Source: Minisyncoccia bacterium (GTDB lineage: Bacteria; Patescibacteriota; Minisyncoccia; Moranbacterales; GWC2-37-73). From it: a DNA stretch of 26,357 bases. Each line of letters starts with the position of its first letter. The stretch's first letter is position 1. This document shows, one piece after another, positions 5,651-18,671 of the stretch. The position numbers and the translations under genes were made by a program. The stretch is from NCBI GenBank assembly GCA_041494985.1, contig JBGQBV010000001.1, positions 1 to 26,357 on the forward strand. The letters run 5' to 3'. Below the pieces are notes generated by a model. That model did not search any database, was not told the origin of the DNA, and saw nothing but the letters and a program-made list of their open reading frames with translations.

Positions 5651-6553
5651 ATGTTAGATATCATTTCCAAAACCAAATACGCCTACATCTTTTCCGGAAC
5701 GCTGACAATTCTCAGCATCGTCAGTCTTTTTGTTTGGGGTTTGAAATATGACATCGATTTCACGGGAGGCACCCGCATGGGCGTGAAATTCGCCGATCAA
5801 GTGCCGGCCAAGGACGAAATTGCGAATGTTCTCAAAAATCTGAATCTAGGAAGTCTGACAATCCAGAATTCGGAAAATAAGACGGTTTTCGTCCGCTATG
5901 CTTCCGAGGAGGATCAGACCAATGAGGCGGTCTGGAAAACGCTGAGCTCCAAATATGCCGATGCGACCCAGGTCAGTGTTGATTTCACCAACTCGTCGGT
6001 TTCCGGCGAGCTTAAATCGAAATCGCTCAACGCGATAGGCATAGCGGTCCTCGCGATCATGGCCTATGTCGCCTGGGCGTTCCGCAAAGTTTCGCGGCCG
6101 GTGGAGTCTTGGAAATACGGTGCCGGCGCGGTCATCGCGCTCATCCATGACGTGCTCATCACCGCCGGCATCTTTTCGGTGCTGGGACATTTCTATGGCA
6201 TCGAAGTCGGCATCCCTTTCATCGCGGCCTTGCTGACGATTTTGGGCTTTTCAGTGCACGACACGATCGTGGTCTATGACCGGACGCGGGAAAACCTGCT
6301 CAAAAGCGGGCGGGGCGCCCAATTTCCCGACGTGGTCAATCGGAGCCTCAATGAAACTTTGGTGCGCTCGATCAACACGTCGCTGACCGTGATCATCACC
6401 CTGTTGGCCATCTATCTCTTCGGCGGCGCATCCATCAAATATTTCGCGCTGGCCCTGCTGGTCGGCGTCACTTTCGGAACATATTCTTCCATCTTCGTCG
6501 CCTCGGCGCTGCTGGTGACGAGCTATGAGCTCACCATAAGAAATAAGAAATAA
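5651..6553 (+). CDS. secF: Protein translocase subunit SecF
   Basis: IDFTGG, GFSVHDTIVVYDRTRE, RSINTSLT, GTYSSIFVAS; follows secD. Confidence 0.98.
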   Translation: MLDIISKTKYAYIFSGTLTILSIVSLFVWGLKYDIDFTGGTRMGVKFADQVPAKDEIANVLKNLNLGSLTIQNSENKTVFVRYASEEDQTNEAVWKTLSSKYADATQVSVDFTNSSVSGELKSKSLNAIGIAVLAIMAYVAWAFRKVSRPVESWKYGAGAVIALIHDVLITAGIFSVLGHFYGIEVGIPFIAALLTILGFSVHDTIVVYDRTRENLLKSGRGAQFPDVVNRSLNETLVRSINTSLTVIITLLAIYLFGGASIKYFALALLVGVTFGTYSSIFVASALLVTSYELTIRNKK

Positions 6554-6561
6554 TCAAACCT

Positions 6562-6825
6562 ATGTTCAATATATTCAAAAAGAAAAACAAGACGGGCAAC
6601 CCGATGGATCCTCAGAACATGGGCTTCCTGCAGAAGATGGCCATGAAGCGGCTGGAAAAAATGAGCCCGGAAGAAAGAAACAAGCTGATGAAAAAAGTGA
6701 TGACGCCGGATAACATTAAGAAAAACAAGGAAGACATTCTGAAGACCTTGGAACAGATGAAAAAAACCGGGCAGATGAACGACCATCAGATCTTCGAGGC
6801 CAAGAAGCGACTGGGATTGCTCTAG
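6562..6825 (+). CDS. Small Met/Lys-rich helical hypothetical protein, co-transcribed with secDF
   Basis: 87 aa, starts 8 nt after the secF stop and ends just before the terminator; 10 Met residues. Confidence 0.8.
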   Translation: MFNIFKKKNKTGNPMDPQNMGFLQKMAMKRLEKMSPEERNKLMKKVMTPDNIKKNKEDILKTLEQMKKTGQMNDHQIFEAKKRLGLL

Positions 6826-6844
6826 GATATTTTTACGCAAATTT

Positions 6845-6884
6845 AAAAGCCCCGACACATGTTGTGTGTCGGGGCTTTGCTTTT
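6845..6884. terminator. Bidirectional intrinsic terminator between convergent genes
   Basis: Perfect 14-bp stem AAAGCCCCGACACA-TGTTG-TGTGTCGGGGCTTT (6846-6878) with A/T tracts on both sides. Confidence 0.85.
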
Positions 6885-6891
6885 GGACAGT

Positions 6892-7518
6892 TTATTTTTT
6901 CTTGTCCGTCTTGATTGCCTCGTTTTTTCTGGCCTTGTCTTTATAGAGCAGGCCATCCGCAACCGCGAATTCTCTCTCGAAATCACTGCTATAGGAATAG
7001 CGTTTGTGTCCGACCGAGATCGAGAGGGGAATCAGTTTCTTGCCCAGCTCCAGAGGATTTTCCGCAACGACTTTCTTGAGCCGCTTGGTCATGGCTTTCA
7101 GGTCGAAGTCGCTGGGTTTTTTCTTCATGACCATCAGCGCCAGGAATTCGTCGCCGCTTTTCCTGATGAAATAGTCGGAGGCGCGCAGCACCTTTTTCAT
7201 GGAATCCACGACCCGCCTCAGGGCGTTGTCACCAGCCTCGTGCCCGTAGTCGGTGTTGATTTTTCTGAGGCCGTCCAGATCAAAATAGAATATGATCAGA
7301 TAATTGGACACTCTTTCCGCCTGGTGCACGATCTGCCGGATCCTTTCCACTGTCAGTTTATTATAATTGGGGAGGCCCGTCAGATGGTCTACAGCCGCCT
7401 GATTCAGCTGATCTTTTAATACGGATATCAGCTTGTCCTGCGCCTTGAGATCCTGCAACATTTTTTTGTTGGCTTCTTTTAATCTCTGGGCTGCTGTTAA
7501 TCCTGTTGTTTTAGGCAT
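6892..7518 (-). CDS. GGDEF-domain protein (diguanylate cyclase-like) with N-terminal coiled coil
   Basis: DHLTGLPN, FDLDGLRKINTDYGHEAGD, RASD I-site, SGDEF signature, SISVG, ADGLLYKDK; strong SD AAGGAGG. Confidence 0.92.
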   Translation of the reverse strand: MPKTTGLTAAQRLKEANKKMLQDLKAQDKLISVLKDQLNQAAVDHLTGLPNYNKLTVERIRQIVHQAERVSNYLIIFYFDLDGLRKINTDYGHEAGDNALRRVVDSMKKVLRASDYFIRKSGDEFLALMVMKKKPSDFDLKAMTKRLKKVVAENPLELGKKLIPLSISVGHKRYSYSSDFEREFAVADGLLYKDKARKNEAIKTDKKK

Positions 7519-11077: not shown

Positions 11078-11091
11078 CGCATGATTGTTTA

Positions 11092-11125
11092 AGGGGTTTC
11101 GGGAAGTTTTTCGAAGCCCTTTTTT
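11092..11125 (+). terminator. Intrinsic terminator
   Basis: AGGGGTTTCGGGA...TTTCGAAGCCCTT stem with G-U pairs followed by a T tract. Confidence 0.65.
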
Positions 11126-11152: not shown

Positions 11153-11181
11153 TTGCCATAAGTCGGTTTAATTGATATTAT
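11153..11181 (+). promoter_or_regulatory. Sigma70-type promoter for tyrS-pheT'-pheS (near-leaderless)
   Basis: TTGCCA (11153-11158), 17-nt spacer, TGaTATTAT (ends 11181); ATG at 11190. Confidence 0.65.
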
Positions 11182-11189
11182 TACTGCAT

Positions 11190-12443
11190 ATGGAAAAAAA
11201 TATAGAACAACAAATTGATGAGATTCTGAGCCGCGGAGTGAGCGAGGTGATTGAACGCGAGCATCTCAAAAAAAGACTCTTGAGCGGCGAAAAATTGCGG
11301 GTGAAATTGGGCATCGATCCGACCAGCCCGAATCTGCATCTGGGTCGGGCGACAGTGCTGCTCAAAATGAAAGACCTGCAGCAATTGGGCCATCAGGTCG
11401 TCCTGATCATCGGTGATTTCACGGGAGTGATCGGGGATACTTCTGACAAGGAAAGCGAACGGCCGATGCTGGACGCGGCCACGGTCAAAAAGAATCTCGC
11501 GACATACAAGGAACAAGCCGGAAAAATTCTGGACATGGAAAAAGTGGAATTCCATTTTAATTCCGAATGGCTGGCCAAATTGGGCTACGCGGAAATCGGC
11601 GAACACGCCGATCAGTTTTCTTTACATGAATTCAGCGCGCGGGAAAATATCAAAAAGCGTCTGGATGAAGGCAAGCGTGTTTCGCTCAGAGAACTGCTGT
11701 ATCCATTGATGCAAGGTTATGACAGCGTGGCGGTCAGGGCGGATTTGGAATTGGGCGGCACGGACCAGCGTTTCAATCTGCTCTCCGGACGCGAACTGCA
11801 GAAACATTTCAAGCAGCCGCAGCAGGATGTCCTGATGGTCAATCTGATCGAAGGCACGGACGGACGCAAGATGAGTTCCAGCTGGGGCAACACGGTCAAT
11901 CTGACCGACCAGCCGAACGACATGTTCGGGAAAATCATGCGCGTTCCGGATGAATTGATCATAAAATATTTCATCCATTGCACACGTCTGCCGCTGGCGG
12001 AAATAAAAGACAAGGAAAGCAGGATGAATCTGGGAAAATCTTTTTGGAGCAAGCTCCTGACAGCAGTTGGAGCCAAAAAACAGGAACTGAGCCCGCGCGA
12101 TGCCAAGCTGTCTTTGGCCGACGAAATCGTCAAGCTTTATCACGGGGAAGATGCGGCTCGGGCGGCGCGCGAATATTTCATCAACACGTTTTCTAAAAAG
12201 GAAATCCCTCAGGACATCGCGCAGTTCGAAGTGCAAAGCGTCTCGATGAAGCTGACGGAGCTTGTCGTGGCGTCCGGCAACGCGACCAGCTTGGGCGATG
12301 CCCGCCGCAAGATCGAGCAGGGCGGGGTTTCGATCAATGACAAGAAGATCACCGATCCGCAAGCCATGGTGGCGAAAGAAAATGACGGACAGGTTTTGAA
12401 AATCGGCAAGATGGGATTCGTAAAAATAGTATTCAAAAAATGA
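11190..12443 (+). CDS. tyrS: Tyrosine--tRNA ligase
   Basis: KLGIDPTSPNLHLG (HIGH), YPLMQGYD, ELGGTDQRFN, KMSSS, C-terminal S4 domain; start set at ATG 11190. Confidence 0.98.
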   Translation: MEKNIEQQIDEILSRGVSEVIEREHLKKRLLSGEKLRVKLGIDPTSPNLHLGRATVLLKMKDLQQLGHQVVLIIGDFTGVIGDTSDKESERPMLDAATVKKNLATYKEQAGKILDMEKVEFHFNSEWLAKLGYAEIGEHADQFSLHEFSARENIKKRLDEGKRVSLRELLYPLMQGYDSVAVRADLELGGTDQRFNLLSGRELQKHFKQPQQDVLMVNLIEGTDGRKMSSSWGNTVNLTDQPNDMFGKIMRVPDELIIKYFIHCTRLPLAEIKDKESRMNLGKSFWSKLLTAVGAKKQELSPRDAKLSLADEIVKLYHGEDAARAAREYFINTFSKKEIPQDIAQFEVQSVSMKLTELVVASGNATSLGDARRKIEQGGVSINDKKITDPQAMVAKENDGQVLKIGKMGFVKIVFKK

Positions 12444-12467: not shown

Positions 12468-12896
12468 ATGAAATTTCTATACAATTGGTTCAAAAAAATA
12501 CTAGACACTGAAAAATCAACCAAAAAGGCGCCAGAAAGTCAGCTGGCGCATTCTTTTGGAAATGTCGTGGTGGGAAAAATTTTGGAAATCGCCAAACATC
12601 CGAACGCGGACAGACTCCAAGTGACAAAAACCGATGTCGGCTCCGAAGTTCTGCAAATTGTCTGTGGCGCACCGAACATCAAAGTCGGACAACTTGTTCC
12701 GGTCGCGCTTGTTGGAGCGAAACTGCCAGGCGGGATGGAAATCAAAGAGGCGGAAATCCGCGGAGTAAAATCCTTCGGGATGCTGTGTGCGACGGATGAG
12801 CTTGGGCTGGGCAGCAATCATAGCGGGATTATGATTTTGAATGAAAAAGCCATGGTTGGAATGGAATTTGCAAAATATCTTAATTTGAATAAATAA
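12468..12896 (+). CDS. Truncated PheT remnant / stand-alone tRNA-binding OB-fold (B2, YtpR/EMAPII-like) protein
   Basis: PheT-like start MKFLYNWFKK, then VVVGKILEIAKHPNADRL, QIVCGAPN, IRGVKSFGMLCATDELG; stops before B3/B4. Confidence 0.88.
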   Translation: MKFLYNWFKKILDTEKSTKKAPESQLAHSFGNVVVGKILEIAKHPNADRLQVTKTDVGSEVLQIVCGAPNIKVGQLVPVALVGAKLPGGMEIKEAEIRGVKSFGMLCATDELGLGSNHSGIMILNEKAMVGMEFAKYLNLNK

Positions 12897-12916: not shown

Positions 12917-14056
12917 ATGCGAAAGATTGTTATTGAGGATCCAAACGAAAAAGTTTTAATAGAAGAATTGGATAAAAGAAGTGACATCAAGGCTGAGCGC
13001 ATCAAAAGGCTTTTGGCTTTGCCTGACCTTACCAGAAAAGAGAATTCGCCGGTGAAAATCTTATTTGATCAGATAATCAATTTGCCGAGGTTTGATGGGT
13101 TTGACATCGTTGAATTCCCGAAAATCATAACCGTCGAGCAATGTTTTGATCTGCTGAACACCCCGAAAGATCATCCAAGCCGAAAAGAAACCGACACATA
13201 CTATGTCAATGAAGAATATCTTTTGCGGACCCAGATGACAGCTTTTTGGTCTTTTTATCTGAAAGACAAGGAAGTCTTGAAAAAATTGGAAGAAGAGGGG
13301 GAGATCAAGGCCTTGGCTCCCGGAATTGTTTATCGGAAAGACGAAATCGACAGGCATCATTTTCCCGCCTTCCATCAAATTGACGGGTTGTTGATCTGCA
13401 AGAAAGACAAAAAAATCATCACCCAACAGGACCTGAAAGATGTCCAGATCGATCTGGCCAAGGGGATTTTCGGGGCGGATATCGAACACAAATTCCTTGA
13501 TGACACTTTTCCCTACACCGTGGAAAGTTTGGAAATGGATATCATGTTCAACGGCGATTGGATGGAGGTCAATGGCGCCGGTCTGGTAAATCCCGTAGTT
13601 TTGGAAAAATTCGGTTTGGATCCGGAAAAATATAACGGCTGGGCTTTCGGTTTCGGAGAAAGATTGGCGATGATCAAGATGGAAATACCGGATATCCGGA
13701 TTCTTTGGTCAAATGACCCAAGAATCACAAGCCAATTCGAGGACATAGACAGCAAGTTCAAGGAAGTCAGCAAATTCCCGCCGGTTGTCCGTGACATATC
13801 ATTTATCATCGACAAAAACATAAACCTCAATAATTATTATGAAATTGTCCGTGACCATGCCAATGATCTGATCGAGGAAGTGAAACTTCTGGATGAATAT
13901 GAAAATGAAGAAAAGTTCGGGAAGGACAAAAAAAGCTATACCTTCCGCATCGTGTATCGTTCATCGGAAAGAACCTTGACCAACGAAGAAATCAACAAGA
14001 TTCAGGAAGCAATCCGCCAAAAAACCGTGCAGGAACTGAATGCCGTGTTGAGATAA
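12917..14056 (+). CDS. pheS: Single-chain (organelle-type) phenylalanine--tRNA ligase: PheS catalytic domain fused to FDX-ACB anticodon-binding domain
   Basis: HPSRKETDTYY, VYRKDEIDRHHFPAFHQ, GWAFGFG-ERLAM, PDIRILWSNDPR, then SKFPPVVRDISF...KSYTFRIVYRSSERTLTNEEIN. Confidence 0.93.
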   Translation: MRKIVIEDPNEKVLIEELDKRSDIKAERIKRLLALPDLTRKENSPVKILFDQIINLPRFDGFDIVEFPKIITVEQCFDLLNTPKDHPSRKETDTYYVNEEYLLRTQMTAFWSFYLKDKEVLKKLEEEGEIKALAPGIVYRKDEIDRHHFPAFHQIDGLLICKKDKKIITQQDLKDVQIDLAKGIFGADIEHKFLDDTFPYTVESLEMDIMFNGDWMEVNGAGLVNPVVLEKFGLDPEKYNGWAFGFGERLAMIKMEIPDIRILWSNDPRITSQFEDIDSKFKEVSKFPPVVRDISFIIDKNINLNNYYEIVRDHANDLIEEVKLLDEYENEEKFGKDKKSYTFRIVYRSSERTLTNEEINKIQEAIRQKTVQELNAVLR

Positions 14057-14075: not shown

Positions 14076-14252
14076 GCTGATTTTTCAGGGAGTGAGCTGG
14101 GTATAAGAGTGCGGAAATGACAAAAAATATTCTTTCAGGGAAAATCGGACAGCAAAAACAAGCTGTCCGATTTTTTTTGCGGCTCGCCGCTGCCGGCGGC
14201 CGCTGCCGCATTGACTAAAAGCGCGGAATGTTGCGCGGATGCAAAAATCAGC
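14076..14252. repeat. Nested structured intergenic element (contains the probable pheS operon terminator)
   Basis: Outer IR GCTGATTTTT/AAAAATCAGC; perfect 13-bp hairpin AAAATCGGACAGC/GCTGTCCGATTTT (14141-14174) plus T8; GC hairpin 14179-14203; direct repeat GCCGCTGCCG x2. Confidence 0.6.
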
Positions 14253-14328: not shown

Positions 14329-15384
14329 ATGAAAACATCCCTCAATCAGGCAAAAAAGGCTGCTGTCTCCGAGAATATGTTTTTTTCTAATTCTTTGCGG
14401 CAGCTTGTCGCCAATCTGTCCTTGCGGTCGCAGGAAATCATCTTCAGCCGCTACGGTGTTTTCGGCGGCAACGCGATGACGCTGGAGGAAATCGGCAAGA
14501 AATATCACATCACCCGCGAACGGGTGCGGCAGATCATCCGAGAAGTGCTCAAGAAAGTCCGGGAAAAAAAGAATGATCCGATCTTCCTGCAGATTCAGGA
14601 GGCTGTCGTCTTGGCGGTGCGGACAAACGGTGGTATAATGGAGGAGAAACAACTCCTGTCAGCCTTGGGAAAAGGAAACGCCAGCGAAGAAGCTGCGGTC
14701 AGTTTTTTCCTGCAATGTTTTGACAGCGTTGTCAGCAGTGAGATCAAGGGCGAACTGAAGTTTTCCTATGCCTTGCCTGATTTCAACATTGAAAGCTGGA
14801 AAGCCGTGAAGAACGTGGCAATAGCCATCCTGAAAGACCAGAAAAAAACCTTCCTGTTCGACGAACTGTTTGAAAAGGTGAAGGCCGACAAAAAAGACCT
14901 TTCCCGGGAAACTTTCGCCCATCATATGGAAGTGGCGGAGGAAATGAAACAGAACGCTTTCGGGAAATGGGGAGTTGCCGGATGGAAAGAGGTTTCTCCG
15001 AAAGGAACGCGGGAAAAAGCCTATCTGGTTCTCAAGGAATCGGAAAAGCCTCTGCATTTCCGCGATATCGCGAAAAAAATAGACCAGTACAAGTTGAACA
15101 AGAAAAAGACTCATCCGCAGACGGTGCACAACGAATTGATCAAGGACAGCAATTTCGTCCTGGTCGGACGGGGAATCTATGCGCTGGCAGAATGGGGATA
15201 TAAGAAAGGCACGGTCAAGGACGTGATCGAGGAGATCCTGGGCCACAGCAACAAGCCGCTGAGCCGGGAAGAGATCCTCGAAAAGGTTTTGGAGGTCAGG
15301 AGCGTGAAAAAATCGACCATCGTCATCAATCTCAACAACTATTTTTCCAAATCGAACAGCGGGGCATATTCAATAAAAAAATAG
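14329..15384 (+). CDS. Sigma-70 region 4-like HTH fused to HARE-HTH (RNAP delta-like) and further winged-helix domains
   Basis: SRYG...MTLEEIGKKYHITRERVRQI (region 4.2-like); GTREKAYLVLKESEKPLHFRDI...QTVHNELIKDSNFVLVGRGIYALAEW (HARE-type); no sigma region 2. Confidence 0.85.
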   Translation: MKTSLNQAKKAAVSENMFFSNSLRQLVANLSLRSQEIIFSRYGVFGGNAMTLEEIGKKYHITRERVRQIIREVLKKVREKKNDPIFLQIQEAVVLAVRTNGGIMEEKQLLSALGKGNASEEAAVSFFLQCFDSVVSSEIKGELKFSYALPDFNIESWKAVKNVAIAILKDQKKTFLFDELFEKVKADKKDLSRETFAHHMEVAEEMKQNAFGKWGVAGWKEVSPKGTREKAYLVLKESEKPLHFRDIAKKIDQYKLNKKKTHPQTVHNELIKDSNFVLVGRGIYALAEWGYKKGTVKDVIEEILGHSNKPLSREEILEKVLEVRSVKKSTIVINLNNYFSKSNSGAYSIKK

Positions 15385-15407
15385 GTTTAAAGGGAAAAGA
15401 AAAATAA

Positions 15408-16685
15408 ATGGACATTCTTTCAAATTCACTGCAGCAAATAGTCACTTCAACGAAAGAGGCGGGTCAAGCTTTGAGCTACGTGTGGTTCATTGTTTTGCCG
15501 CCTCTTTTTTATTTCCTGTTCAAGGAGCTGTGGATGTACCATATCCAGGGAAAATATTCTGCGGCGCCTGACTGGGTGCTGCTGGAACTTATTCCGCCGA
15601 AAAATATCGAAAAAAGCCCGAAATCGATGGAGAATTTCATCATGGCTTTCGCCGGAGTGGAAAAGGCCTTCACTCCCATCGAAACTTATATCGATGGGGC
15701 GTTTACGGATTATATGAGTTTGGAAATCGTGGGCGATTCCGGCAACGTCCATTTCTATGTCTGGTCAATGAAAAAATTCCGGCATCTGGTCGAAGCGCAT
15801 CTTTATGCGCAATATCCGGATGTGGAAATCCTTGAAGTTCCGGACTACGTCAATGACGTGCCGAAGGTCGTCCCGAACAGCCAATGGGACCTTTGGGGAA
15901 CGGATTTCGAATTGTCAAAACACAGCGCCTATCCGATCAAGACCTATCCGCAATATGAGGAATCCATCACTGGCAAGATGATCGACCCGCTGGCCGGGCT
16001 CATCGAGACCATGGGCAAGTTGGGACCGAACCAGAAGATCTGGCTGCAATGGATCATCCAGCCTACGAGTCCGAGATGGGCGGGCCTGGAGGGCAAGCCG
16101 GTCCTGGACAAGCTCAAAGGCAGGGAGGTCAAGCACGAAAGCATCCTGGAACGCATCCGGAAAGACATCGTCGATGTTTTCAGCAATATTCCCAAAGCCT
16201 TCCATAGTCCCGTGGAATTCGCGTCAGAATCAGCCAAAGAAGAGCAGCCGCTGGACGTGCGCCTGTCTCCGGTAGAAAGGGATGTGCTCAAGGCGGTGGA
16301 AGAAAATCTCGGCAAGGTGCAGTTCTATGTCAAAGGACGTTTCCTTTTTCTGGGACGCCGGGAAAATTATGACAAAGGCGTGGGACTCAATGCTTTTTTC
16401 GGAGCCATGCGGCCGTTCAATGACGAGAATCTCAACAGTTTGAAACCGAACAACAGCACCAAGACTTCCCCTTACTATGTTTTCATAAAGCAACGCATGC
16501 GCTATCTGCAGTATAAGATTTTCCGCCGCTACAAGGACAGGAGCATGTCGCCGAATTCCGTGGTCATGAGCGTCGAGGAACTGGCGACATTGTTCCATTT
16601 CCCGGATATGAATGTGGTCGCGCCTTCATTGACCCGCACGGAAGCAAAACGCGGCGGTGCGCCGTCCAATCTGCCGATAGAATAG
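15408..16685 (+). CDS. Membrane-anchored hypothetical protein, resembling the N-terminal partner domain of CPR VirD4-like ATPases
   Basis: 425 aa; N-terminal TM WFIVLPPLFYFLF; motifs YMSLEI, VEAHLYAQYPDVEI, YPIKTY, MSVEELATLFHFP; directly upstream of the ATPase. Confidence 0.75.
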   Translation: MDILSNSLQQIVTSTKEAGQALSYVWFIVLPPLFYFLFKELWMYHIQGKYSAAPDWVLLELIPPKNIEKSPKSMENFIMAFAGVEKAFTPIETYIDGAFTDYMSLEIVGDSGNVHFYVWSMKKFRHLVEAHLYAQYPDVEILEVPDYVNDVPKVVPNSQWDLWGTDFELSKHSAYPIKTYPQYEESITGKMIDPLAGLIETMGKLGPNQKIWLQWIIQPTSPRWAGLEGKPVLDKLKGREVKHESILERIRKDIVDVFSNIPKAFHSPVEFASESAKEEQPLDVRLSPVERDVLKAVEENLGKVQFYVKGRFLFLGRRENYDKGVGLNAFFGAMRPFNDENLNSLKPNNSTKTSPYYVFIKQRMRYLQYKIFRRYKDRSMSPNSVVMSVEELATLFHFPDMNVVAPSLTRTEAKRGGAPSNLPIE

Positions 16686-16721
16686 GTCTTTTACTTATTA
16701 ACTACAACGCTAGTTACGAAT

Positions 16722-18671
16722 ATGAGCAATATTGAAATCAATTTTTTCGCTAAGACGAACTTCCGGAACCAGGAGCGGGTCTTCGGCATAAAGACCGATG
16801 ATCGCCGCCGGCATATGTATATTGTCGGGAAAACCGGCATGGGCAAGACCAATCTTTTGGAAAACATGGCCGTGCAGGATATCCGCAACGGGAACGGTGT
16901 CTGCTACATCGATCCCCACGGCGACACGGCCGAAAAACTGCTCAAAGCCATACCTTCAAGCCGCATCAATGACGTAGTATACCTTAATCCGGCGGATCAG
17001 AATTTTCCGCTGGCTTTCAACGTGATGGAAGCGGTTGATCCGGAATACCGGCATTTGGTGGCATCGGGACTCATCGGGGTTTTCAAGAAGATCTGGGCGG
17101 ATTCCTGGGGACCGCGGCTGGAATATATCCTCCGCAATGCGATTTTGGCGCTTTTGGAATATCCGGGGAGCACACTGCTCGGCGTGACGAGGATCCTGGT
17201 CGACAAGAAATATCGGGAAAAAGTCGTCGACAAGATCACTGATCCGGTCGTGAAACAGTTCTGGGTGGATGAGTTCAGCAAATGGAACGATCGGGTGCTG
17301 CAGGAAGTGATTTCGCCGATCCAGAACAAAGTCGGACAATTCCTGTCCAGCTCCTTGATCAGGAACATCGTCGGTCAGACGCAGTCGTCTTTTGATATCC
17401 GCGAACTGATGGATGCGAAAAAGATCCTGATCCTGAACCTGTCCAAGGGCCGGATCGGCGAGGACAACAGCGCCCTGCTCGGCGCCATGATGATCACGAA
17501 GATCCAGCTGGCGGCCATGGGACGCGTGGATATTCCCGAAGAAACCCGCAAGGACTTCTATCTCTATGTGGATGAGTTCCAGAACTTCGCCACCGAATCG
17601 TTCGCCAACATCCTGTCTGAAGCCCGCAAATACCGTCTGGACCTGATTCTGGCCAACCAATACATCACGCAGATTGACGAGAAGGTCCGGGATGCCATTT
17701 TCGGAAATGCCGGCACGATCATCTCGTTCCGCGTCGGAGCGACAGACGCCGAATTTCTGGAAAAGGAGTTCGAGCCCGTTTTCATGCAGAATGACATCGT
17801 CAATCTGCAAAAATACAACATCTATCTGAAACTGATGATCGACGGCATCGCTGGCGACGCGTTTTCCGCGACGACCATGCCGCCTGTCTATATCGAAGAT
17901 ACAGCGGGCAACGAAGAGAAAGTCATCGCTGTTTCGCGCGAACGTTATGCGTCAAGCAAAGCTGAGGTGGAAGACAAGATCGCCCGCTGGGCGGGCATGA
18001 TGCCGGCGGCCGGTTTTCCGACCGTCAACAAGCCGCCAGCAGTTTCAAATCAGAATACGAATCCGAATTTTCCAAATAACCACACTGTCATCTCTTTTCC
18101 GCGGCCGCAAAAAATGCAGGAACCAGCGGCGGAGCAGCTGGTGAAAGATTCCTTCAAAGTTCAAGAATCGGCAGCCAAACCTGCCCGAAAAGAAGAGGAA
18201 GAAAAACTAGCGGAAGAGCAGCCGCTAGTGGCGCTCAAACCGATGTTTGACGCAATCTGTGACATGTGTGCCACGGAAATACAAGTGCCGTTCCAACCGG
18301 ACGGGAAAAGGCCGACTTTCTGCAAGGATTGCCTGAAAGACTATCAGCGCATGACAGCAAAGGAAAAGTTGGCTCAGGAAAGGAAGATGCAACGGCAGGA
18401 AGAAAAGACGGTTGCAAATGCCAAGATCCATGCAGCGACCGCCAAGCCAGTGCATCCGGCCAAAACTGCCAGTGCAGCTAAGGTCGTTCAACCAGCCGAA
18501 AGGCATATGGAACACAAAGCATATGCGCCCAAGGACAAGCCGATGTCCCTTTCCCAGATGCAGCACATCGCGCCGAAAAAATTCAAATCGGCGCGTCCCA
18601 AGCCGAACATAAACCTGGACGAGGTGCGCAGCCTGATCAACAAAAACCGCAGTTCCAAAGAGGAAAAATAA
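16722..18671 (+). CDS. VirD4/TraD/TrwB-like (HerA/FtsK superfamily) ATPase with C-terminal CxxC-x17-CxxC zinc ribbon
   Basis: RRRHMYIVGKTGMGKT (Walker A), IDPHGD, LYVDEFQNF (Walker B), SEARKY, LANQY; CDMC-x17-CKDC at 18258-18332. Confidence 0.9.
   Translation: MSNIEINFFAKTNFRNQERVFGIKTDDRRRHMYIVGKTGMGKTNLLENMAVQDIRNGNGVCYIDPHGDTAEKLLKAIPSSRINDVVYLNPADQNFPLAFNVMEAVDPEYRHLVASGLIGVFKKIWADSWGPRLEYILRNAILALLEYPGSTLLGVTRILVDKKYREKVVDKITDPVVKQFWVDEFSKWNDRVLQEVISPIQNKVGQFLSSSLIRNIVGQTQSSFDIRELMDAKKILILNLSKGRIGEDNSALLGAMMITKIQLAAMGRVDIPEETRKDFYLYVDEFQNFATESFANILSEARKYRLDLILANQYITQIDEKVRDAIFGNAGTIISFRVGATDAEFLEKEFEPVFMQNDIVNLQKYNIYLKLMIDGIAGDAFSATTMPPVYIEDTAGNEEKVIAVSRERYASSKAEVEDKIARWAGMMPAAGFPTVNKPPAVSNQNTNPNFPNNHTVISFPRPQKMQEPAAEQLVKDSFKVQESAAKPARKEEEEKLAEEQPLVALKPMFDAICDMCATEIQVPFQPDGKRPTFCKDCLKDYQRMTAKEKLAQERKMQRQEEKTVANAKIHAATAKPVHPAKTASAAKVVQPAERHMEHKAYAPKDKPMSLSQMQHIAPKKFKSARPKPNINLDEVRSLINKNRSSKEEK

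Follow-up and report, generated by a model that had tools for sequence, protein, structure and literature searches.

The 26,357-nt stretch examined here (the window; contig JBGQBV010000001.1 of an ultra-small, Moranbacteria-like Minisyncoccia bacterium, positions 1 to 26,357) carries at 12917..14056 on the forward strand a gene for a single-chain phenylalanyl-tRNA synthetase (PheRS), in which a PheS-type catalytic core is joined to an FDX-ACB anticodon-binding domain of the PheT B8 type. It is very probable that this open reading frame (ORF) encodes the cell's only, housekeeping PheRS, a minimal enzyme that has displaced the pheS-pheT pair. In textbooks and reviews, bacterial PheRS is an (alpha-beta)2 heterotetramer whose beta subunit carries an editing site, and single-chain PheRS is an organellar peculiarity. 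The form found here is widespread in Parcubacteria-type members of the candidate phyla radiation (CPR), and it has the mitochondrial architecture without membership of the mitochondrial family.

As the housekeeping enzyme, the protein would use its PheS-type class II core to make Phe-AMP and to transfer Phe to tRNA-Phe, and the covalently attached FDX-ACB domain would read the GAA anticodon, probably through a closed-to-open swing of that domain like the one in human mitochondrial PheRS (mtPheRS). Since there is no B3/B4 editing site, Tyr-tRNA-Phe would not be clearable in cis. The fused gene would have displaced pheS-pheT at a site where relatives retain the pair. The 142-aa ORF just upstream would be what survives, as an N-terminal B2 OB-fold, from a PheT of the window's order, and would most likely serve as a loose, trans-acting tRNA-binding helper, by analogy with Trbp111 or Arc1p. 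The fused gene, of a distinct CPR clade, would move between Patescibacteria families by horizontal replacement.

Domain structure, fold and family

The PheRS ATG lies 20 nt past the stop of the preceding ORF and has a Shine-Dalgarno-like site, GGGTGA, 8 nt to its 5' side. The parts of the gene are as follows.

12917..14056, forward strand: single-chain PheRS gene; ATG start, 379 aa plus stop
12917..13033, forward strand: short N-terminal segment, aa 1-39, two helices, replacing a coiled-coil arm of ~100 aa (alignment and N-terminal hidden Markov model, HMM)
13034..13738, forward strand: class II PheS catalytic core, aa 40-274 (PF01409), with motif 2 VYRKDEIDRHHFPAFHQIDG and pocket motif FPYT
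13637..13663, forward strand: motif 3, GWAFGFG-ER, with one residue deleted (alignment and motif table)
13769..14053, forward strand: FDX-ACB (PheT B8-type) anticodon-binding domain, aa 285-379 (PF03147; TIGR00472 positions 701-798, 87.1 bits)

Pfam assigned residues 40-274 to tRNA-synt_2d (PF01409, E 1.5e-53) and residues 285-379 to FDX-ACB (PF03147, E 2e-27, 95.9 bits). The first-pass annotation had proposed an alpha catalytic core and an FDX-ACB domain in one chain with no coiled-coil arm, and both this layout and the identity of the C-terminal domain, on which the proposal depended, hold. The core is preceded by 39 residues, whereas in canonical Patescibacteria PheS it begins at residue 100-139. 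Helices are predicted in this segment at residues 9-20 and 24-33; the segment is kept within the CPR clade only, and the N-terminal HMM matches CPR-type sequences only.

Thirteen residues, all in the core and the PheS tail, are invariant across an alignment of 58 fused forms, eukaryotic mitochondrial enzymes and SrmL among them: R89, R104, R140 (motif 2), D142, D145, H148, P199, E217, G222, R249 (motif 3), D259, R261 and Q273. Comparison with the orthologue in genome G399 gave a non-synonymous divergence (dN) of 0.078 with the synonymous divergence (dS) saturated, or a dN/dS of ~0.03, which suggests a functional gene under strong purifying selection. More than 5,900 homologues are present in metagenomes, with more than 120 clusters at 79-92% identity; given these thousands of homologues and the low dN/dS, the reading frame has not arisen by chance. 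That it is an artefact of assembly or annotation, in which pheS and the 3' end of pheT had been chimerically joined, has negligible probability and nothing to recommend it beyond the unusual architecture. The same ORF of 379-380 aa occurs in hundreds of independent assemblies, and the predicted structure is confident across the joint of the two domains; the independent homologues, the purifying selection and the scan of GTDB genomes described below rule this reading out.

An AlphaFold (AF2) model was built from the 58-row alignment of fused forms, with pLDDT 95.7 and pTM 0.91; the FDX-ACB part adopts a beta-alpha-beta-beta-alpha fold at pLDDT >90. A Foldseek search with this model returned closed human mtPheRS first (3cmq/8p8x), aligned over the whole chain with TM 0.79-0.82 and a root-mean-square deviation of ~3 A across ~390-405 columns. 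The open, tRNA-bound structure 3tup gave TM 0.59, and bacterial alpha chains aligned with the core only. The PDB sequence search was similar: human mtPheRS (8p8x, 3cmq) matched best, through both domains (E ~1e-55), followed by bacterial PheS alpha chains through the core only (E ~1e-37). The predicted arrangement thus resembles that of closed human mtPheRS.

Family models placed the protein less simply. Run with the whole protein against NCBIfam, TIGR00469 (pheS_mito) scored 248.5 bits against a cut-off of 258.35, TIGR00468 (bacterial PheS) 167.9 bits against 237.45, with the match beginning at profile position 49, and NF051887 (SrmL, 'PheS-related mystery ligase') 248.4 bits against 300. Neither of the two models that the first-pass annotation had put forward as a check, TIGR00469 and TIGR00468, was therefore passed, although a member of another CPR sub-clade, P0121, does pass the TIGR00469 cut-off at 264.3. 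With the catalytic part alone, SrmL scored 185.8, bacterial PheS 167.7 and the mitochondrial model 167.6, and with the FDX-ACB part alone bacterial PheT scored 87.1 against 70.4 for the mitochondrial model.

The sequence between the domains had been quoted as an organellar linker motif. It is present, as DIRILWSNDPRITSQF...SKFP, but it is not organelle-specific. In the canonical proteins of 17 Patescibacteria the PheS C-terminus reads ...DIRLFxxGDLRFxxQF and the PheT B8 domain starts ...KFPxxxRDIS, so the supposed linker is an ordinary PheS tail followed by an ordinary B8 start. In the fused protein about five residues join the full PheS core and tail to the full B8. The junction bears no organelle-specific signature, and such a fusion could arise repeatedly.

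A maximum-likelihood (ML) tree of the catalytic core was built from 83 sequences and 226 columns; it is unrooted and contains no outgroup (no archaeal or eukaryotic PheRS alpha). Four groups were obtained: canonical PheS (100/100), the CPR fused forms (99/98), SrmL (100/100), and a clade (99/93) mixing eukaryotic mitochondrial enzymes (Branchiostoma, Coemansia, Salpingoeca) with contiguous forms of ~350 aa. The CPR enzymes thus form a clade of their own outside the mitochondrial one. The mitochondrial-type label given to the protein at first reading is apt for its architecture and predicted fold, and fails for family membership on both score and tree.

The similarities to known systems divide accordingly. 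With organellar PheRS (human FARS2, 3CMQ closed and 3TUP open; TIGR00469) the protein shares a PheS-type core and a C-terminal FDX-ACB domain in one chain, and the lack of a coiled-coil arm, beta subunit and editing domain. It differs from the organellar enzymes in being bacterial and chromosomal, in its sub-threshold score and separate clade, in lacking the insertion of 30-100 aa that splits the catalytic core in eukaryotic sequences, and in having its own conserved 39-aa N-terminus and usually a PheT-B2 stub gene alongside. With canonical (alpha-beta)2 PheRS (TIGR00468 and TIGR00472; T. thermophilus 1PYS, E. coli 3PCO) it shares a PheS-like core and C-terminal tail, a PheT B8-like FDX-ACB domain, a B2-like stub and the pheS-pheT slot in the chromosome, but the PheS coiled coil, most of PheT B1, and B3/B4 (editing), B5 and B6/B7 are missing, and B8 is covalently joined to alpha. 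SrmL likewise has two domains in a single chain, and on this protein its model ranks level with the mitochondrial one; true SrmL members, however, reach 402-415 bits and lie on a separate long branch, and in G000, the genome of the window, the fused protein is the only PheRS and not an extra copy. The window's enzyme is therefore a member of neither the mitochondrial family nor SrmL; it represents a third lineage, a bacterial one, that shares their architecture.

The only PheRS gene in the assembly

The genome to which the window belongs, G000, is an assembly of 782 kb in 114 contigs, 90% complete. A profile search of it found no other pheS-like gene. Matches to PheT were limited to the stub upstream of the fused gene (profile positions 39-164) and to the C-terminus of the fused PheRS (positions 693-798), and the B3_4 editing domain PF03483, detected in 14/14 control genomes, was not found in G000. 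The absence of the editing domain, also claimed in the first-pass annotation, thus extends to the genome, which has neither a PheT beta subunit nor B3/B4.

The position of the gene explains the missing pair. In G077, a genome of the same family, the order is secA, secD, secF, two genes, pheS, pheT and a HARE-HTH gene. The window has the same flanks, at 52-68% identity, and the slot between them is filled by tyrS, the stub and the fused PheRS. Because the pheS-pheT slot is occupied by this cassette, incompleteness of the assembly is not the reason why pheS-pheT is missing. The pattern recurs in other genomes: PheT B3-B7 was absent from all 19 other fused-form genomes of the Patescibacteria sample and PheT present in 4/4 canonical controls, and PheT was likewise absent from the fused-form genomes G350, G399, G361 and G360. 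The 23 other fused-form genomes without PheT are 94-100% complete.

Four observations weigh against the conclusion that this is a minimal single-chain housekeeping enzyme. The first is genome G412, of the window's order (96% complete, 2% contamination), in which a fused form (C3:34140-35258) accompanies canonical pheS (C1:64120-64806) and full-length pheT (C1:6705-9221). The two forms can thus coexist, and the housekeeping role need not fall to the fused one in every genome; G412 may represent either a transitional state or a chimeric metagenome-assembled genome (MAG). The second is the state of G000 itself, in which the tRNA-Phe gene was not assembled. ARAGORN found 32 tRNA genes in the whole assembly and none for Phe, His, Cys or Val, probably owing to assembly incompleteness, given the 114 contigs. 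The third concerns the active site. Motif 3 is one residue shorter than the GFGLER or GFGIER of other fused forms and of canonical forms, a deletion common only to the window, G399, G361 and close metagenomic relatives (the G360-type enzyme reads GFGIDR), and motif 2 of this sub-clade has Asp where human mtPheRS has Glu; the CPR clade has mostly FPYT and FHQIDG, and the human enzyme FPFT and FHQLEA. These differences might bear on activity in the window's sub-clade. The fourth is that some fused-form genomes (G241, G279, G236) have no stub.

The second and first of these, the 90% completeness and G412, would also fit a paralogue with another job, similar to SrmL, whose host has its true PheRS in the unassembled part of the genome, and the SrmL model does rank level with TIGR00469 on the whole protein and first on the catalytic part. 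We regard this as highly improbable. The protein falls below the SrmL cut-off and far below the scores of true SrmL representatives, SrmL is a long-branched clade apart from the CPR one, and, as described above, the cassette fills the pheS-pheT slot and the more complete fused-form genomes also have no PheT. A displaced pheS-pheT pair, with the fused gene as the housekeeping PheRS, accounts for these data better.

The PheT-B2 stub and the tyrS cassette

The features around the fused gene that make up the cassette are listed here.

11153..11181, forward strand: promoter-like site TTGCCA-17-TATTAT, TG-extended, ahead of tyrS (consensus scan, 10/12 matches; consensus match only)
11172..12443, forward strand: tyrS, bacterial TyrRS (TIGR00234, 326.9 bits against a cut-off of 113.8)
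12468..12896, forward strand: PheT N-terminal stub, 142 aa, with MKFLYNW start and B2 OB-fold tRNA-binding domain (PF01588 tRNA_bind, E 2.3e-19)
14145..14178, forward strand: intrinsic terminator with a 9-bp stem TCGGACAGC/GCTGTCCGA, an 8-nt loop and a T8 run (read from sequence)

A terminator-like hairpin at 11091-11122 closes the gene upstream of tyrS, and the putative promoter that follows it is likely to be the start of a tyrS-stub-PheRS operon. The true tyrS start is probably an ATG six codons inside the listed TTG ORF. The terminator after the PheRS gene was identified by direct reading and was not among the results of the consensus scan. Neither a T-box nor any other leader turned up when the window was scanned with Rfam, and ARAGORN found no tRNA in it. 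Downstream, at 14329-18671, lie genes for a protein with sigma-70 region 4 and HARE-HTH, a 425-aa protein that matches no Pfam family and a 649-aa protein; G077 and G360 have all three in conserved synteny, at 52-75% identity.

The best match of the stub by far is PheT (TIGR00472, 159.5 bits, positions 39-157), and it shares 56% identity with the N-terminal part of G077 PheT, which is full-length. As a small free PF01588 protein beside aminoacyl-tRNA synthetase (aaRS) genes it resembles the stand-alone tRNA-binding OB folds (Trbp111/CsaA, YtpR NF045760, TapR NF045867). It passes the YtpR model (135.9 against 100), covering just the C-terminal half of that profile, falls under the TapR cut-off (67.7 against 120) and scores 33 bits on a CsaA-type model; unlike these stand-alone proteins, it retains the PheT start MKFLYNW.

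The stub lies directly 5' of the fused gene on the same strand in 8/11 distant loci, and is upstream in seven of the eight loci of the window's order. The full order tyrS-stub-PheRS is kept in six loci (G399, G361, G360, G347, G382 and G326); in G350, tyrS-stub and the fused gene are convergent, on opposite strands. In family f28 the adjacent upstream gene encodes a pilin-like or TSP3-repeat protein, not TyrRS; as f28 has no tyrS neighbour, the common partner of the stub is the fused PheRS. The tyrS genes of the cassettes are themselves diverse, with 42-45% identity to that of the window in G361, G347, G382 and G360 and 61-70% in G399, G326 and G350, and it appears that the cassette has exchanged one TyrRS lineage for another.

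A tree of B2 domains separated the stubs into two clades. Those of the order (97/94) lie among PheT B2 domains beside that of G077 PheT (87/76), those of f28 form a separate long branch (100/100), and a single stub origin was recovered in 0/200 bootstrap trees, which indicates that stubs arose at least twice. A stub left over from G000's own pheT was considered and dropped, since the stubs of the order form one clade and resemble one another (66-73% identity) more than they do G077 PheT. The relic thus arose a single time within the order and moves along with the cassette.

Retention of a stub in at least two separate lineages argues for function. It could mean that the enzyme is not truly single-chain and that the stub is an obligatory non-covalent subunit of a two-gene minimal PheRS, a reading that the stub's maintained position and strand in two independently derived lineages and the purifying selection on it (dN/dS ~0.23) would fit. 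Besides the three fused-form genomes that have no stub, however, three others (G006, G284 and G143) have the stub, or just a weak tRNA_bind match, elsewhere in the genome, and the stub is less constrained than PheRS; both points weigh against an essential role, and a two-gene enzyme of this kind seems unlikely. Mukai et al. (2017; PMC5370408) reported that many CPR PheT proteins have no B2 and that B2 occurs in fusions with TyrRS and LysRS; this points to a generic, dispensable tRNA-binding module. A predicted complex of stub and PheRS scored 0.00, which has no bearing either way on binding. We therefore prefer a single-chain PheRS that the stub, most likely, assists loosely.

In two genomes of the same class, L024 (G026) and L025 (G256), canonical PheT starts at about profile position 159, without B1-B2, in agreement with PMC5370408.

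Distribution, origin and significance

Full-length fused forms were found in 20 of the 301 sampled Patescibacteria species (~7%), G000 included; the tally takes in one unpublished genome, G154, which contributes a single canonical-type match. The form is universal in some families (f28, 10/10) and absent from most others. Within the window's order it occurs in 9/121 genomes, which are spread among four families that are otherwise canonical. Scanning the species genomes of GTDB yielded at least 553 fused-form loci. The best 80 of these, some crude automatic labels aside, all come from CPR MAGs labelled Moran-, Staskawicz-, Taylor-, Nealson- or Wolfebacteria or Paceibacterota, and they include a GW2011 Moranbacteria genome of 2015. 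The form is thus widespread in the CPR, in genomes publicly available since 2015, and the reservation about novelty entered with the original call applies, although the call itself stands.

The relationships among these enzymes do not follow those of their hosts. G360, of the same family, is 86% identical to the window in SecA and 78% in SecD, with 70% in the fused PheRS, whereas G399 (SecA 72%, SecD 68%) and G361 (SecA 70%, SecD 65%) are both 86% identical to it in PheRS. In the PheRS tree the pairs formed by the window with G399 and by G326 with G360 each join one f1 genome with one f132 genome. The patchiness within families and the incongruence with SecA and SecD suggest that the fused form is probably mobile among Patescibacteria families and spreads by horizontal replacement. 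The range of identities in the cassette tyrS (42%-70%), together with the conflict between PheRS and SecA, suggests further that the cassette is a mosaic, exchanged between families.

The relation of the CPR enzymes to mtPheRS depends on how the core tree is read. The unrooted tree has a branch (100/100) that separates canonical PheS from all the fused forms, and in the absence of an outgroup all of them could still share one ancestor. The CPR form would then be the bacterial source or sister of mtPheRS, with one PheS-B8 fusion common to the CPR, SrmL, phage-borne and mitochondrial enzymes. The predicted whole-chain match to 3cmq fits this, as do the scores on an HMM of the CPR FDX-ACB domain, 50-89 bits for mitochondrial and phage FDX domains against 11-51 bits for Patescibacteria PheT B8. 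The CPR clade, however, is neither inside nor clearly adjoining the mitochondrial one; the central branch, weakly supported (89/73), sets it with canonical PheS against SrmL and the mitochondrial clade. The ordinary junction, which could arise repeatedly, and the higher score of the FDX part on the bacterial PheT model than on the mitochondrial one also count against it, and we consider common descent possible but on balance doubtful.

A bolder version, rather unlikely in our view, would have one ancient PheS-B8 fusion behind all single-chain PheRS (CPR, SrmL, huge-phage-like and mitochondrial), mtPheRS acquired ready-made, and the twice-kept B2 stub a real trans-acting partner. If true, eukaryotes would owe mtPheRS to such a bacterial or phage lineage and not to an invention of their own. 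This would parallel the mitochondrial RNA polymerase and replication proteins, which are of phage origin.

Two metagenome contigs, L018 (340 kb; PheRS at 6001-7047) and L021 (160 kb; PheRS at 6001-7065), encode ~350-aa single-chain PheRS proteins that pass the TIGR00469 cut-off and group with eukaryotic mtPheRS. P0132, whose 90% cluster includes the L018 protein P0274, scores 308 bits on that model, and P0136 scores 264 bits. The contigs carry many ORFans plus genes for PhageMetallopep, PcfJ, dCMP deaminase and DNMK, and are probably huge phages; their PheRS may bear on the origin of mtPheRS.

The searchable literature gave no description of a single-chain PheRS from bacteria or the CPR. Mukai et al. 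(2017) come nearest, with their remarks on CPR PheT proteins that have no B2 and on fusions of B2 with TyrRS, and AARS Online (PMC11580382) lists PheRS-M with the human structure as sole example. The same genes are labelled 'PheRS alpha chain' by JGI and 'hypothetical protein' by NCBI. The NCBI label plausibly reflects scores of this sub-clade that fall slightly short of two model cut-offs, and with it such genomes look as if they had no PheRS.

On sequence evidence, the window's lineage and hundreds of related CPR species appear to run translation on a 379-residue PheRS without editing. This raises the questions of how small a PheRS can be, of how cells with tiny genomes cope with Tyr mischarging, of whether the B2 module compensates for lost tRNA contacts, and of where mtPheRS came from. 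It also suggests that horizontal transfer within the CPR can repeatedly displace an essential aaRS.

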